Source: Planctomycetota bacterium
GTDB taxonomy: Bacteria; Planctomycetota; B15-G4; JADJEK01
Reading direction: 5' to 3'
Assembly: GCA_043802345.1 (NCBI GenBank)
Contig: JAZDLC010000067.1
Coordinates: 1-24,918, forward strand
Length of the DNA stretch: 24,918 bases
Both the position numbers and the translations under genes were made by a program. Each line of letters starts with the position of its first letter. Within the stretch, counting starts at the first letter, position 1. Below, piece by piece: positions 2 to 5,291 of the stretch. The notes beneath the pieces were generated by a model. It was not told the origin of the DNA. It did no database searches and saw only the letters and a program-made list of their open reading frames with translations.

Positions 2-247
2 GACCTGCGCCATGCCTTCGGCTCCCAGCTCGCCGCCGCCGGCGTCCCACTGACGCACATCCAGCGGCTCATGGGCCACAAGGCGATCGCCACCACGATG
101 CGCTACGCGAAGCACCAGCCAGACGATGCCGGCCGTCTCGCAATCGCCCGACTCGAACAGGCCCGCCATTCGAACAGTTCGGCGTCGACCGAAGGCGACG
201 TTGCACATGCACCCGACCGCTCGAACCCCTGGAGAGAGAGCCCATGA
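2..247 (+). CDS. Tyrosine recombinase (phage-type integrase), C-terminal fragment; the 5' end lies outside the window
   Basis: The frame starting at nt 2 has no Met and translates to DLRHAFGSQLAAAGVPLTHIQRLMGHKAIATTMRYAKHQPDD... up to a TGA at 245-247. This matches the tyrosine recombinase C-terminal box (R-H...LLGH..I.TT..Y), including the catalytic RY tyrosine. The ORF track misses it because it has no in-window start. Confidence 0.7.
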   Translation, partial: DLRHAFGSQLAAAGVPLTHIQRLMGHKAIATTMRYAKHQPDDAGRLAIARLEQARHSNSSASTEGDVAHAPDRSNPWRESP

Positions 248-275: not shown

Positions 276-605
276 ATGATGTGGAAGGCAGTGCAGCAGC
301 GAGAATGCATGGAATGTGGAAAAACCGCGTCCATTGAGGTGACCGTCCAAGATGGCCCCATTCCCAGGATCGGCGAGACCATCGTCGTGAATCCAAGCCC
401 TGGCCTGGTCTTGTACGTCGATGAAGCTCCCTACCGGTGCACTTCCGATCGGGTCGGGACAGTCATCGGCGCCGTGGTGGAAAACGTGGTCTACTGGCTG
501 ACCCCACCGGAGGGGGAGGTTCTGCTGGAACTCTCCGAGGAAAAAGGGTCTTGTCCTCGGTGTGACCCGTTTATGGAGCCGATTCCAACCAATCCGGCAC
601 CGTGA
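276..605 (+). CDS. Hypothetical small protein with two CxxC pairs (putative zinc ribbon)
   Basis: A strong Shine-Dalgarno (SD) motif GAGGGAGGA sits 6 nt upstream of ATG 276. CMEC is at residues 11-14 and CPRC at 93-96. The composition is protein-like. It lies between the integrase fragment and the TAC-like cassette. Confidence 0.5.
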   Translation: MMWKAVQQRECMECGKTASIEVTVQDGPIPRIGETIVVNPSPGLVLYVDEAPYRCTSDRVGTVIGAVVENVVYWLTPPEGEVLLELSEEKGSCPRCDPFMEPIPTNPAP

Positions 606-616
606 CGAGAGGATCT

Positions 617-1033
617 CTACTTGGGAGTTCTAGGAACCGTGAAGTTCATCGGCGGAAGGATGACCTGAATCAACCCGGCTCGGCGACAGAGATCGCTGAT
701 CGCCTCTCGCGCGAAGCCGTAGAGGAACGCTGGAGCATGCACCCTCTGGACCGACTCGATATCCACGTCGCTTTCATTCTCGACGAGGAATCTCGCTGAG
801 AAAGTTGCAGCAGCCTTCCAAAGATCCTTCTTCTCATCGACAGTTCCGCTGACAACCACAGTGAGCCGGTGCTCCATGCCGACATCCCTCTGAATCGGCG
901 CGTGCGTCTGGATCTGAAAACTGACCCTGTTCGTCGTCTCTTTCGTTGGGTCTTCAATGGTCCAAGCAAAACTCATCTCAACTAGGTTGACCTGAGTGAC
1001 TGAATAGCCCTTCGTTGGTACTGGATCGGTCAT
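617..1033 (-). CDS. SecB-like export chaperone (solitary SecB homologue, TAC-type)
   Basis: The 138-aa product resembles E. coli SecB. FQIQTHAPIQRDVGME aligns with FQIQRIYTKDISFE, RLTVVVSGTV with VVLRVTVTA, and AFLYGFAREAISDLCRRAGLIQVILPPMNF with [29 protein letters not shown]. Its start overlaps the upstream gene's stop as ATGA at 1030-1033. Confidence 0.8.
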   Translation of the reverse strand: MTDPVPTKGYSVTQVNLVEMSFAWTIEDPTKETTNRVSFQIQTHAPIQRDVGMEHRLTVVVSGTVDEKKDLWKAAATFSARFLVENESDVDIESVQRVHAPAFLYGFAREAISDLCRRAGLIQVILPPMNFTVPRTPK

Positions 1034-1605
1034 GCCGCCTCCGCCATCTCCTCCGCTTCCTCACGTTCGTACTCGGGAGGAGGGCCCACGATGCACTCGA
1101 AATTGACCGAGCCTGCGTTGAGATTTCCAATTGGTGTCCAGTCACCGTGAGGACAACTAGCACCTGACACCAGGCCGAAATCCGGAACTACCAACCTCCC
1201 TCCGGCAATCTCCTTGAACCGTGCATCGAGGTGAACGGGCAACGACGGGGGGAGCACCGAAATGGTGAAGGACCGAGCAACGGTTGGAGTGTACGCGTCG
1301 AAAACGACGCCAAAAGCAGCTCTCACATCCTCCTCGGTCCGAACATGCCCCTCGCGAGGATGCGCCCAGACGATCGATGCCCCAGCGCCATCCACCGCGA
1401 ATTCGCGAGATACGATCTTTCGCAGCAGCTTTCGCTGGAGATCTCGGGCATCTCGACCAAGTGCACCAACCACATTGTACTGCAGTACCATCCCCTCGTC
1501 GGCACCCGCGCATCGCGTCACGAAGACCGGGTACGGAAACACCTGATCGCGTAGCTCCCTCAGCACCTCTCGAGCTATCTGCATATCTGGAGCAACGTCG
1601 CTCAT
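1030..1605 (-). CDS. Hypothetical protein with acidic C-terminal tail (candidate antitoxin of a TAC module)
   Basis: The 191-aa ORF is translationally coupled on both sides (ATGA at 1602-1605 and 1030-1033). I recognise no known domain. A hydrophobic patch SVNFECIVG is followed by the acidic tail PPPEYEREEAEEMAEAA, which could be a chaperone-addiction segment. The antisense ORFs are low-complexity. Confidence 0.55.
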   Translation of the reverse strand: MSDVAPDMQIAREVLRELRDQVFPYPVFVTRCAGADEGMVLQYNVVGALGRDARDLQRKLLRKIVSREFAVDGAGASIVWAHPREGHVRTEEDVRAAFGVVFDAYTPTVARSFTISVLPPSLPVHLDARFKEIAGGRLVVPDFGLVSGASCPHGDWTPIGNLNAGSVNFECIVGPPPEYEREEAEEMAEAA

Positions 1606-2015
1606 GGATTCACACCTAGTCCTTCGAGAAGTGCCCTCAGCTCTCTGAGATCTTCCAATACGTGGGTGCGTTTGGGGCTTCCTGGACCGTAGTCTGCCTC
1701 GATTCGCCTCTGTTTCAGATCCGCGTAGCGCACCGAGTTCTCCGTGGCATCCTGCCGATTCCAGCCACTCCCAAGAAAAGCGGCCCGGGCGTTGCTTTGG
1801 ACCCGTCCATGGTCCCAGTTTCCTCTTTCGTTCTTCAGAGCCTCTGGGTTTAGCCCCCTCGCGAGCAATCTCGCGATAACCGCCTGGAACAGGGCGTAGT
1901 AGTTCCTTGTCGCTGCTGGCCGGTGGTGCTCTCCAGGAGGTTGAAAACCCATCAGAACTTCGGACGCGCGATAGTTTGCTCGGGATCGATCTCGGAACTC
2001 CTCGGGCGACGACAT
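1602..2015 (-). CDS. HEPN-domain protein (candidate RNase toxin)
   Basis: The 137-aa product contains NYYALFQAVIARLLARGLNPEALKNERGNWDHGRVQSNARAAFL. This is the hallmark HEPN helix (AYYAxFHAAxALL) followed by an Rx4HG motif. It is the first gene of the coupled cassette. AAGAGGGA lies about 12 nt upstream of the ATG. Confidence 0.6.
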   Translation of the reverse strand: MSSPEEFRDRSRANYRASEVLMGFQPPGEHHRPAATRNYYALFQAVIARLLARGLNPEALKNERGNWDHGRVQSNARAAFLGSGWNRQDATENSVRYADLKQRRIEADYGPGSPKRTHVLEDLRELRALLEGLGVNP

Positions 2016-2150
2016 GGGTTGCTATCCCTCTTCTTGCTTTCAGTAGCAGAATACCGCACCACCGGCCGCCGCCACATCACTTTCGCTGTTGCGGCTCAGA
2101 GAGAGCTTTTCTCGCTCGCCGGTACTGTTCTGTGGCGGTGGCGGACCAGT

Positions 2151-2176
2151 GCACAAGGGCACACGTAAGGGCACAT
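2151..2176. repeat. GCACA x3 / AAGGGCACA x2 direct repeats with 12-bp spacing
   Basis: The sequence reads gcacaagggcacacgtaagggcacatg. It lies between the cassette promoter region and the tRNA fragment. Confidence 0.4.
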
Positions 2177-2251
2177 GACCGAAACTCCATGCATTCAATC
2201 CTCCGTAATACGATTACAGCAAATGGGTTGCAGCATCCTCACGGTACATCC

Positions 2252-2435: not shown

Positions 2436-3380
2436 TTGGAACAGAGAGACTACCCGCGCGACGATTTCGACGGCCCCTGGAAGGAAGCGCTGGAGATCTA
2501 CTTCGAGGACGCTCTCCGCCTCCTGATTCCGGACCTTCATGCCGCCATCGACTGGAATCAGGAGGTCGCATTCCTCGACAAGGAGCTGCAGAGTTTCTTC
2601 CCGGATGAAGGCAGCGGCAAGGGAATCGTCGATCTGCTTGCGCGGGTCATGACGCAGAAAGGCACACCCGCCCGGATTCTGCTCCATGTCGAAGTCCAGG
2701 GGAATGTGGATCGATCGTTCGCCCTGCGCATGTACCAGTATCAGTACAAGGCGTTCGACCACTCCGGACTCCCGGTCGAGAGCGTCGCCATTCTCGCCGA
2801 CCTCAGCCCGTCCTTCCGCCCGGACCATTTCGAACAGGTCGCACTGCATACTCGGATCCGATTCGACTTCACGACCGTCAAGCTGCTCGACTTCGAGGAC
2901 CGCGTCGACGAACTGGGAACCAGCGACAACCCGTTCGCCATGTTCGTGCTGGCGTATCTCCGCGCGCGGCGGAATCGGGATGGCGAGAGGCGGTACCGGT
3001 ACAAGATCGAGCTGGTGCGCCTCCTGTACGACAGAGATTTCGACCGCGTGGACGTGGTACAATTGCTGCGGTTGCTCGACAAGGTCATCGGGCTGCCGCA
3101 CGACCTCAGAAGACCGTTCCAGCATGCCGTCACGCAGATCGAGGAGGATCGGACGATGACCAGTTACGGGAGCCTCGAGGAGTTGGCGATGGAGAAGTAC
3201 TCTCGCAGAGCGATCCTGACCGTGATGGAAACGCGGTTCGGGACCCTGCCTCCAGAGCTCAGTGCGGCCCTGGAGCAAATCGAGTACCTCGACATCCTGG
3301 ACGGACTTGTCCGCCAGGCGGTGCTGGTCGAGGACGTCGAAACCTACCTCACAGCCGTGAGAAAGCACGTCCCCTCCTGA
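2436..3380 (+). CDS. Putative Rpn/YhgA-like PD-(D/E)XK nuclease or transposase, DUF4351-type C-terminus
   Basis: The N-terminal DGPWKEALEIYFEDALRLLIPDL, the core motif GIVDLLARV...ILLHVEVQ (D...E-V-Q) and the C-terminal TVMETRFGTLPPELSAALEQIEYLDILDGL all match this family (recognition from memory, no search run). The antisense 410-aa ORF 2214..3446 is an artefact. Confidence 0.8.
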   Translation: MEQRDYPRDDFDGPWKEALEIYFEDALRLLIPDLHAAIDWNQEVAFLDKELQSFFPDEGSGKGIVDLLARVMTQKGTPARILLHVEVQGNVDRSFALRMYQYQYKAFDHSGLPVESVAILADLSPSFRPDHFEQVALHTRIRFDFTTVKLLDFEDRVDELGTSDNPFAMFVLAYLRARRNRDGERRYRYKIELVRLLYDRDFDRVDVVQLLRLLDKVIGLPHDLRRPFQHAVTQIEEDRTMTSYGSLEELAMEKYSRRAILTVMETRFGTLPPELSAALEQIEYLDILDGLVRQAVLVEDVETYLTAVRKHVPS

Positions 3381-3683: not shown

Positions 3684-5291
3684 TCAGCCGTCCTGCCCCT
3701 TCTTCTCGGCTCCTTCCTTGGCCTCCGGCTTGGCCGCGTCTTTCTTGCTCTCCTTGGCCGGAGCGGGCTCCTCCTGCTTCACGAGCCTGCCGAAGAACTC
3801 CGGCATCTCGACGCCGCCGACGTCCTTCATGATCTGCATCATCGGCGGGATGGCTCCGCCCAGGCTCTTCAGGAAGCCCGAGGTGGCGCTGCCGTTCCCG
3901 CCGGCGTTGCCGCCGTCCCAGACGATGACCTTGTCGAACTTGATGTTGGAGATCGCCTTTGCCGCGGTCTCCGAGAGATGATCGAGGTGCTCCAGCATCA
4001 GCATCTGGAACGCCTCGTGCGACCCGCCACACGCCTGGACGATGCTGCGCAGACCTTCGCCCTTCTTCGCCAGGATCTCGTACTGGCCCCGGGCCGTTGC
4101 GTCGAGCCTCGCGAAGATGGCCGACGCCTCGCCTTCCGCCTCGATCCGCCGCCTTTCGGCCACGGCCTCCGCGTCGACGATCACCTTCGCCTTTTGTGCC
4201 TTGGCCACCGCCTCCAGCTCGGCCCTTTTTTCCGCCTCCTGCTTGGCGGCCATCGCCAGGGCCGCCTTGGTCTCCGCGTGGTACTGCGCCTCGAGCACTC
4301 CGGCCTCCGCCTCGCGCTTTCGCGTCTCGCCGATTTGGTACGCCTCCGCTTCCTTGACCTTCAGGGTGGCATTCACGTCGGCGATCTGCGCCTTCGATAG
4401 GTTCTCGCCGGTGACCGCCTTGGCGTTGGCGCTTGCCACCTGGATGCGCATCTCCCTTTCCGCATCCTTGATCATCGACTCCTGCTCGAAGCGGGCCGTC
4501 TCCTCGCCGACCGCCTTTTCCTTCTCCAGCACGGCGAGCCTCACCGCCTGCTCCCGTTCCGCCTCCTTGGTGCCGATGCTCTGGAACTTGACCGCGTTTG
4601 CAACCTGGATCTGCCGTTCCCGCTGGTTCTCCGCCACACCGATGGCGCCCTTCTTCTCCTGCACCGCCACGTCCACCAGCGCCTGCTGGATCGCCTCGGA
4701 CGCCGCCTTGCGGCCGATCGCCTCGATATACCCAGACTCGTCGGTGATGTCGGTGATATTGACGTTGATCAGCACCAGCCCGATCTTCTCGAGTTCCGGC
4801 TCCAGAGAGCGCTGGATGCTCTCCAGGAACTTCTCGCGGTCCCGGTTGATGTCCTCGATCAGCATCGACGCGATCACCTGACGCAACTGGCCGAAGATGA
4901 TGTCCTCGGCCTGCTTCATGATCTCGGACGTGGAAAGCCCGAGCAGACGAATCGCCGCGTTCTGCATGGTGGGGCCCTGGGTCCCCACCGCCACCGTGAA
5001 CACGCTCGGAACATTGACCCGGATGTTCTCGATGGAGAGCGCGCCTTTCAGCGGAATCTCGATCTGGATCGGATCCAGGCCGATGTACGCGTAGTCCTGG
5101 ATCAGAGGCCAGATGAACGCGCCGCCGCCATGTAAGCACTTGGCGGACTGGCCGGAGGCGACCTTGCCGTACACCACGAGCACGCGGTTGCTGGGGCAGC
5201 GCTTGTAGCGCGTGACCACCATCATCAGCATCAGGAAGGCGACGAACAGCGCCGCCACGATGATTCCAATTGTGTACGGATTGTCAGGCAT
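3684..5291 (-). CDS. Flotillin-family SPFH-domain protein (YqiK/FloT-like)
   Basis: An N-terminal TM segment is followed by the SPFH region VLVVYGKV...GGGAFIWPLIQDYAYIGLDPIQIEIPLKGALSIENIRVNV. There is a long Ala/Glu/Lys coiled-coil region and a charged tail. The start overlaps the nfeD stop as TGATG. Confidence 0.9.
   Translation of the reverse strand: MPDNPYTIGIIVAALFVAFLMLMMVVTRYKRCPSNRVLVVYGKVASGQSAKCLHGGGAFIWPLIQDYAYIGLDPIQIEIPLKGALSIENIRVNVPSVFTVAVGTQGPTMQNAAIRLLGLSTSEIMKQAEDIIFGQLRQVIASMLIEDINRDREKFLESIQRSLEPELEKIGLVLINVNITDITDESGYIEAIGRKAASEAIQQALVDVAVQEKKGAIGVAENQRERQIQVANAVKFQSIGTKEAEREQAVRLAVLEKEKAVGEETARFEQESMIKDAEREMRIQVASANAKAVTGENLSKAQIADVNATLKVKEAEAYQIGETRKREAEAGVLEAQYHAETKAALAMAAKQEAEKRAELEAVAKAQKAKVIVDAEAVAERRRIEAEGEASAIFARLDATARGQYEILAKKGEGLRSIVQACGGSHEAFQMLMLEHLDHLSETAAKAISNIKFDKVIVWDGGNAGGNGSATSGFLKSLGGAIPPMMQIMKDVGGVEMPEFFGRLVKQEEPAPAKESKKDAAKPEAKEGAEKKGQDG

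Follow-up and report, generated by a model that had tools for sequence, protein, structure and literature searches.

The DNA considered here, hereafter the window, is the whole 24,918-nt contig of a Planctomycetota metagenome-assembled genome (MAG); close to its start the minus strand carries a cassette of three overlapping genes, called A, B and C in what follows, which we regard with reasonable confidence, on the evidence of their sequences, as a toxin-antitoxin-chaperone (TAC) module located on an integrated mobile element. The genes, their junctions and the region that precedes them are listed below (protein lengths in amino acids, aa).

1602 to 2015, minus strand: gene A, 137 aa, a HEPN-domain protein of the AF0298 (HEPN-T) type, predicted RNase toxin
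1602 to 1605, minus strand: A/B junction, ATGA, the stop of A and the start of B
1030 to 1605, minus strand: gene B, a 191-aa orphan in the antitoxin position, predicted chaperone-addicted antitoxin
1030 to 1033, minus strand: B/C junction, ATGA, the stop of B and the start of C
617 to 1033, minus strand: gene C, a 138-aa divergent SecB-like chaperone
2016 to 2249, minus strand: non-coding leader 5' of A, the presumed promoter/operator region

The preliminary description of this DNA, in which three minus-strand genes joined by ATGA overlaps had been noticed, proved accurate in this respect: the open reading frames (ORFs) run from 2015 to 1602, from 1605 to 1030 and from 1033 to 617, both overlaps are present, and a GGAGG sequence is located 8 nt 5' of the start of C. 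That B is a real gene in its frame is supported by its GC content by codon position (0.70/0.46/0.61), which resembles that of A (0.65/0.48/0.60). In the NCBI annotation B is the hypothetical protein MFH0944020.1 and C is a "protein-export chaperone SecB"; the exact sequence of A is missing from the public protein collection, A being either unannotated or called with another start.

Among the three proteins, C is the one with a direct family assignment, and its earlier identification as a SecB homologue is confirmed by a score of 47.8 bits against Pfam SecB (PF02556), whose cutoff is 26. Against the NCBIfam SecB equivalogs the best score is 40.2 bits, their cutoffs being 102.8-277, so that C does not qualify as a housekeeping SecB; it also matches weakly (1.3e-4) the PADLOC profile PD-T4-9_C, built for CmdC, which is the chaperone component of CmdTAC, a defence system. 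Because it passes the Pfam cutoff, falls far below those of the equivalogs and resembles CmdC, C is, as judged from these profiles, a divergent SecB-like protein and no standard export SecB. Nor is it the solitary gene expected of a housekeeping SecB, as it overlaps B.

The protein encoded by A, taken alone, has no match in Pfam, NCBIfam, PADLOC, PHROGs or the PDB, nor in a word-indexed homologue search. An exhaustive HMMER scan over 1.84 billion representatives, in which A and B were concatenated as the query, retrieved 22 distant relatives of A, 107-233 aa long and 32-43% identical over the matched stretches; 19 of the 23 aligned sequences (A and these relatives) match Pfam HEPN (PF05168), with a best E-value of 2.8e-14, and the A-family profile matches two HEPN structures, 9xbd (6.5e-7) and 2hsb, i.e., AF0298 / UPF0332 (3.8e-6). 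The AlphaFold2 model of A built with its relatives (predicted local distance difference test, pLDDT, 96; predicted template modelling score, pTM, 0.91) has the four-helix up-and-down arrangement typical of the HEPN fold. Membership of A in the HEPN superfamily is thus transitive, reached via its relatives, the family profile and the predicted fold. Two segments of A are relevant to its putative active site:

1809 to 1817, minus strand: W67-D-H69, in the helix 2-3 insert, where H69 is the putative "alternative" catalytic histidine, a role assigned after Anantharaman 2013
1689 to 1706, minus strand: R104-I-E-A-D108-Y109, the canonical HEPN motif position, with the arginine kept and the histidine replaced

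In the alignment of the 23 sequences Y39, H69, R104, A107, D108 and Y109 are invariant, while R37, Y40 and W67 (the latter in 21/23) are nearly so. The preliminary description had pointed to the peptides YYALFQAVIARLL and RGNWDHG, both of which are found in the 137-aa protein, and had read the second as an Rx4HG motif; of this reading the histidine survives, H69 being present in 23/23, and the arginine does not, since R64 is not conserved and an Arg 4-6 positions upstream of the histidine occurs in 4/23. The pattern is instead that described by Anantharaman et al. 2013 for the AF0298-like HEPN-T clade: the canonical motif retains the Arg and has another residue, often Asp, in place of the His, and an alternative active site could be completed by a second conserved His, contributed by the insert that separates helices 2 and 3; indeed, R104, D108 and Y109, together with H69, are invariant in all 23 aligned sequences. 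On this conservation, the active site of A is best described as R104 plus H69, matching the published alternative site, rather than as R64-x4-H69. The same authors place AbiV with the AF0298-like HEPN proteins, using the position of the alternative His as the criterion, and AbiV was later shown experimentally to be an RNase; from the site pattern and from this clade mate we infer that A is an RNase as well.

The properties of B are quite different. In agreement with the preliminary description, which had recognised no domain in the 191-aa protein, no match was found in Pfam, NCBIfam, PADLOC, PHROG or the PDB. Its N-terminal half has a balanced charge, residues 101-176 are Pro/Gly- and aromatic-rich (7 aromatics, with W156 within HGDWTPIG), and the protein is closed, as had been reported, by the acidic end EYEREEAEEMAEAA, the last residues of which are MAEAA. 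The elements of interest in its C-terminal half are as follows:

1033 to 1305, minus strand: C-terminal half of B (residues 101-191), candidate chaperone-addiction region, with hydrophobic/aromatic stretches, W156, an acidic helix and Ala-Ala
1138 to 1140, minus strand: codon of W156
1033 to 1038, minus strand: the terminal Ala-Ala

A C-terminal Ala-Ala is a ClpX recognition signal; its replacement by Asp-Asp stabilises both CmdA and M. tuberculosis HigA1, and CmdA ends in LAA, other TAC antitoxins likewise ending in Ala-Ala. B, therefore, carries the kind of C-terminus (Ala-Ala or Val-Ala) that defines ClpXP-type degrons. As to the binding of the chaperone, the published chaperone addiction (ChAD) motifs combine aromatic and basic residues and disfavour acidic ones; for this reason the acidic tail of B is unlikely to be a chaperone-binding element, the hydrophobic/aromatic stretch around W156 being the better candidate. 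The C-terminal "extension" of B is deduced from length and composition, B being unalignable to any homologue.

Comparison with other genomes places the cassette in a recurrent arrangement. Loci were collected from the contigs encoding the relatives of A and from a one-genome-per-species scan with the back-translated pattern AA.R.YYA[LIVMF][FY]Q, yielding about 50 loci with a HEPN gene of the A family (given below as L numbers). In 12 of them, including the window, the order HEPN / partner / SecB-like is observed, with intergenic gaps of at most 21 nt, and 9 of the 11 third genes tested match Pfam SecB; they come from Planctomycetota, Verrucomicrobiota, Victivallales, Myxococcota and unclassified MAGs, the first two groups and their relatives predominating among the 11 loci other than the window. 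As the same order recurs in 11 loci other than the window, the arrangement is more than chance. In the remaining loci (e.g. L005 and L012) nothing but a short partner comes after the HEPN gene, which allows the partners of the two types to be compared. When only tightly coupled, complete partners are considered (12 SecB-linked and 25 without SecB), their mean length is 168 aa with SecB versus 119 aa without (Mann-Whitney p = 3e-5), and an Ala-Ala C-terminus is found in 11/12 SecB-linked partners versus 1/25 of the others, the test being made on loci that are phylogenetically non-independent (Fisher p = 1.6e-7; counts 11/1/1/24); the single SecB-linked partner devoid of Ala-Ala ends in Cys-Ala. 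Longer partners ending in Ala-Ala beside a SecB gene are the experimentally defined signature of TAC systems, namely a transferable extension and a degron that come with the chaperone. A Trp located 20-40 residues from the C-terminus occurs in 10/12 SecB-linked partners, for which the chance expectation is not negligible; it is suggestive and not statistically compelling.

In a rough neighbour-joining (NJ) tree of the HEPN proteins, which is statistically unsupported, the window groups with L024 and then with L001 and L009, all of them SecB-linked, while in the rest of the tree SecB-linked and SecB-less loci are intermingled; such a mixture fits a chaperone module that was gained or lost repeatedly. 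The comparison with L024 is instructive, in that A and C are each 36% identical to their counterparts (7e-17 and 7e-24, respectively), whereas the partner of L024, also 191 aa long and ending in AAA, shows with B a weak N-terminal match of 28 residues (E = 0.03 in a single comparison). The middle gene, barely alignable between flanking genes that align well, thus appears to evolve much faster than A and C, as is common among antitoxins. The partners themselves fall into families with no relative in Pfam, NCBIfam or the PDB: a core family of 20 members was delimited by pairwise phmmer, comprising the SecB-linked L014, L030, L052, L054, L055 and L064 and many two-gene loci, and is joined by L066, L001 and L009 when a hidden Markov model (HMM) is used; the partner of L024 is, like B, an orphan and that of L010 is marginal with respect to the family. 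An apparent membership of B in the partner family was due to B itself having been a seed of the HMM.

Several other observations concern these relatives. A second family of HEPN partners, about 92-110 aa long, with the motif LTELALYAKELCP...YEDEDG...TGLFILCA and no Pfam or NCBIfam match, follows the HEPN gene at L020, L023, L025, L028, L031, L033, L038, L057, L062, L065 and L071; none of its members has a SecB, and it is weakly related to the core family (hhalign probability 45%). Within the core family, the SecB-less partners of L019, L039, L043, L049 and L050, all from Planctomycetota, have very Arg-rich tails (e.g. RRRRGSSARAPSSARRRSVRARARA), unlike the SecB-linked members, whose tails show Trp ... 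Ala-Ala. At L018 (1079-1495 and 1659-1970) the partner has a ChAD-like tail (AEWSML ... NFKFAA) and is followed by a Phd/YefM antitoxin gene (Pfam 3.4e-17), no SecB-like gene being present across the 8-kb locus, which may reflect loss of the chaperone or its provision in trans. At L013 (1153-1353) a third gene that is not SecB-like overlaps the partner gene by 4 nt, the contig ending inside it, and may represent a different third component. A 233-aa HEPN relative (P0013), with an additional C-terminal domain of about 95 aa which looks partner-like by eye, was considered as a natural HEPN-partner fusion and rejected, its C-terminus scoring no better than shuffles with any partner HMM. Finally, the cassette relative of L064 (281-2722) lies near the R subunit of a type I restriction system and that of L005 (1270-2982) adjoins a phage head-tail connector gene, neighbours that fit a defence-island or prophage setting.

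The surroundings of the cassette in the window bear on its mobility, and two features flanking it are relevant in this respect:

2 to 247, plus strand: C-terminal end of a tyrosine recombinase (integrase; Pfam Phage_integrase 2.8e-10), cut by the contig start
2250 to 2312, plus strand: 3' two-thirds of a tRNA-Leu(UAG)-like gene, with the anticodon, variable and T arms, the 3' acceptor strand and CCA, and without the 5' acceptor strand

No intact tRNA was detected here by ARAGORN or by Rfam at its gathering threshold, the Rfam tRNA match being sub-threshold (18.8 bits), and the fragment is unique in the window; as the 3' part of a tRNA gene alone is the appearance of a displaced copy of an att site, it is likely to be the remnant left by integration into a tRNA gene. 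The GC content at third codon positions (GC3) is 0.60-0.64 in the cassette against 0.81-0.90 in the neighbouring genes, and this low value, together with the flanking integrase and tRNA-Leu 3' fragments, argues for a foreign origin of the cassette, which plausibly occupies the far end of an integrated element. The location at the end of an integrative element proposed in the preliminary description is likewise plausible: the two fragments and the GC3 values speak for it, while the contig starts within the integrase and the other end of the element lies beyond its reach.

The remaining neighbours may be described briefly. Between the integrase fragment and the cassette, a 109-aa ORF (276-605, plus strand), convergent with C, contains two CxxC pairs (CMECGK ... 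CPRCD) and has no family match. Just past the tRNA fragment, a 314-aa ORF (2436-3380, plus strand) gives sub-threshold matches to the YhgA-like Transposase_31 family (Pfam, 0.0092) and to a PHROG transposase (0.011); further on, a 535-aa SPFH/Band 7 (flotillin-like) protein (3684-5291, minus strand) has a GC3 of 0.90, typical of the host and unlike that of the cassette. In the leader of the cassette, a 12-nt inverted repeat is present at 2065-2076 / 2131-2142, and a tandem 9-mer, AAGGGCACA, at 2155-2163 and 2167-2175 (plus strand), with a 12-nt spacing and about 140-160 nt upstream of A; the latter could be an operator or a product of chance.

The order toxin, antitoxin and SecB-like chaperone, common to all described TACs, corresponds to that of the three genes of the cassette, which lie on one strand, overlap by ATGA and have the same order in 11 other loci; the TAC architecture with a HEPN-type toxin suggested in the preliminary description is accordingly supported, at the computational level, by the SecB homology of C, by gene order, by the Ala-Ala end of B and by comparative genomics. 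The systems with which it may be compared are HigB1-HigA1-SecB(TA) of M. tuberculosis (Rv1955-1957), HigBAC, MqsRAC and HicAB-SecB of E. coli, and CmdTAC (PD-T4-9). With these the cassette shares the tricistronic operon of toxin, antitoxin and SecB-like genes, the overlapping genes and the probable location on a mobile element, as well as a ClpXP-type Ala-Ala at the end of the middle protein, whose C-terminal half is a candidate for the long extension, and shorter partners in the relatives that have no chaperone. It differs in its components: the toxins described so far are HigB, MqsR, HicA, unknown ORFs and the ADP-ribosyltransferase CmdT, and the antitoxins HigA, MqsA, HicB, MqsA-like and HTH-like proteins and CmdA, whereas the putative toxin of the cassette is a HEPN protein and B has no helix-turn-helix (HTH), ribbon-helix-helix (RHH) or MqsA domain, belongs to no catalogued family and is acidic at its extreme C-terminus. 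No domain of the toxin-antitoxin (TA) pairs known from TACs (HigBA, MqsRA, HicAB, HTH-like or CmdTA) is present in A or B.

The toxin side has its own known counterparts. With the AF0298 / UPF0332 HEPN proteins (HEPN-T, PF05168; 2hsb, 9xbd) A shares the sRxYYA helix, the canonical Arg with D/Y in place of His and the alternative His in the helix 2-3 insert, and it differs from them in being below Pfam detection, in having a partner that is no minimal nucleotidyltransferase (MNT) and in its coupling to SecB. The type VII HepT/MntA systems (Shewanella SO_3166/3165 and the HEPN-MNT pairs of Aphanizomenon and Legionella) likewise pair a small HEPN toxin with a neighbouring gene whose product neutralises it, as would be the case here; their HepT, however, is a DUF86 protein with an Rx4HxY motif and their antitoxin, an AMPylating MNT, is encoded upstream in most cases, whereas the partner in the cassette is encoded downstream, has no nucleotidyltransferase signature and is associated with a degron and a chaperone. 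AbiV, a HEPN RNase of abortive infection, has the alternative His position in common with A and differs in that its antitoxin is an RNA (type III) and no chaperone is involved. The claim that a HEPN toxin combined with a SecB chaperone had gone undescribed also holds, in so far as no such system was found in the searchable literature (full text, of incomplete coverage, so that an earlier description elsewhere is possible); in the papers examined that mention both, HEPN and SecB belong to separate systems.

If the cassette is a TAC module, a mechanism may be proposed which takes as its basis the observed gene architecture, HEPN and SecB homologies, conserved residues and family-wide link between SecB, partner length and Ala-Ala end, and which adds to them, as predictions, RNase activity, binding of A to B, chaperone dependence, degradation by ClpXP and a trigger. 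A would be a small HEPN RNase of AF0298 type, whose active site would be formed by R104 and the alternative H69, probably across a dimer; the fast-evolving antitoxin B would bind and block A. The long C-terminal half of B would render it aggregation-prone, and its Ala-Ala end would mark it for ClpXP, unless a tetramer of the SecB-like C held the tail, keeping B soluble and shielded from the protease. Titration of C by other clients would then expose B to degradation by ClpXP, whereupon A would cut RNA and growth would stop. What draws the chaperone away in CmdTAC and HigBAC is newly synthesised phage protein, from the capsid or the tail; by analogy, phage structural proteins or other unfolded clients may be the trigger here.

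A number of results weigh against this interpretation and should be considered together. On the side of the toxin, the HEPN-like nature of A claimed in the preliminary description, which holds by way of the relatives, the family profile and the predicted fold, fails as a direct assignment, A giving no match to Pfam HEPN at E <= 1; the canonical Rx4-6H motif is absent, R104 being followed at +4 by Asp and at +5 by Tyr; and for the AF0298-type HEPN proteins RNase activity is predicted, and not demonstrated, in the literature examined. On the side of the antitoxin, the HMMER scan over the 1.84 billion representatives returned B itself as the only homologue of B, as did the word-indexed search, and the single-sequence AlphaFold2 model of B is unusable (pLDDT 40). 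A place for B in the partner family was tested and rejected, the leave-one-out HMM giving -0.3 bits, equal to shuffles, and hhalign a probability of 0.2%; as no homologue is detectable, the antitoxin role of B is predicted from its position, its length and the features of its tail only. Moreover, the last 15 residues of B are strongly acidic, a residue class disfavoured in SecB/ChAD binding motifs. To these points may be added the relatedness of the loci that enter the Ala-Ala/SecB association and the leader at 2016-2249, in which promoter and terminator consensus sequences were searched for and none, including a sigma-70 consensus, was found.

Other explanations of the cassette have to be weighed against the same evidence. 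That the HEPN protein has no catalytic activity and serves as a subunit which regulates, or which binds RNA or a ligand, in a chaperone-assisted complex formed by the trio for some other role, is rather unlikely in our view; it would account for the replacement of the canonical Rx4-6H histidine and for the failure of A to match Pfam directly, and some HEPN domains are indeed inactive binders (Anantharaman 2013). Yet H69, R104, R37, D108 and Y109 vary hardly or not at all among relatives that are 26-42% identical, which argues for a conserved active site; these residues constitute the alternative site proposed for AF0298-like HEPN proteins, and an Ala-Ala degron coupled to SecB is the hallmark of a labile antitoxin and not of a stable subunit. 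We give still less credit to the idea that B and the other partners are cryptic, degenerate MNT-like nucleotidyltransferases which modify Y109, in the manner of type VII HepT/MntA, with SecB aiding their folding. HEPN proteins of the AF0298 clade are normally paired with MNTs, Y109 is invariant, for the PDB relative 9xbd there is a further entry, 9xbc, in which the Tyr of the corresponding DY position is changed to Phe, and by eye the partners share a layout of helix, strand, acidic loop and strand reminiscent of the MNT core; the likeness, however, is visual only, and is not borne out statistically. Neither B nor the 24 partner proteins match a Pfam or NCBIfam nucleotidyltransferase (PF01909, PF18765), the profile of the partner family yields no MNT in the PDB, and B has no GS...DxD motif, which supports the preliminary description in calling the partner non-MNT.

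It is very improbable that A and B are an ordinary two-gene module and that C is an export chaperone of general function, placed downstream by coincidence and unrelated to them. The NCBI label of C ("protein-export chaperone SecB") and its Pfam assignment to the SecB family would suit such a view, which is contradicted by the ATGA overlap of C with B, by the occurrence of the three-gene order in 12 loci of several phyla, by the association of SecB with longer partners that end in Ala-Ala, and by the score of C, 40 bits against equivalog cutoffs of 103-277; in addition, SecB homologues beyond Proteobacteria are mostly TA-associated. Hardly any weight can be given to a reversal of roles, with B as the toxin and the HEPN protein as its antitoxin: B, having no known fold, might conceivably be toxic, and the order of the genes alone proves nothing, but in every described TAC the chaperone-dependent protein, encoded beside SecB and provided with a C-terminal extension and a ClpXP degron, is the antitoxin, HEPN domains are the toxins of the HepT, RnlA, LsoA and AbiV systems, and B evolves far faster than A, as is typical of antitoxins.

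A TAC module with a HEPN toxin remains, therefore, the explanation that we favour, and a broader proposal, which we put forward only tentatively and consider possible without counting it as probable, is that in Myxococcota and in bacteria of the PVC group the HEPN proteins of AF0298 type form an uncatalogued TA family, whose small non-MNT antitoxins have no relative in Pfam, NCBIfam or the PDB, in which an addiction module of SecB, ChAD and Ala-Ala would have been repeatedly gained or lost, and whose SecB-linked versions would be phage-sensing abortive infection systems that release a HEPN RNase when phage structural proteins titrate the chaperone. The cassette also illustrates a gap in current annotation, A being absent from the protein collection, B "hypothetical" and C labelled as an export chaperone; and AF0298-type HEPN proteins, normally paired with nucleotidyltransferases, are seen to pair also with a family of small partners that has no name in the databases. 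TAC systems are a current model for a chaperone acting as a phage sensor; a HEPN-based TAC, if the interpretation is correct, would extend the range of their toxins to the most widespread superfamily of RNase toxins, and the loci described here would offer natural matched pairs, with and without SecB, suited to the study of how chaperone addiction is acquired.

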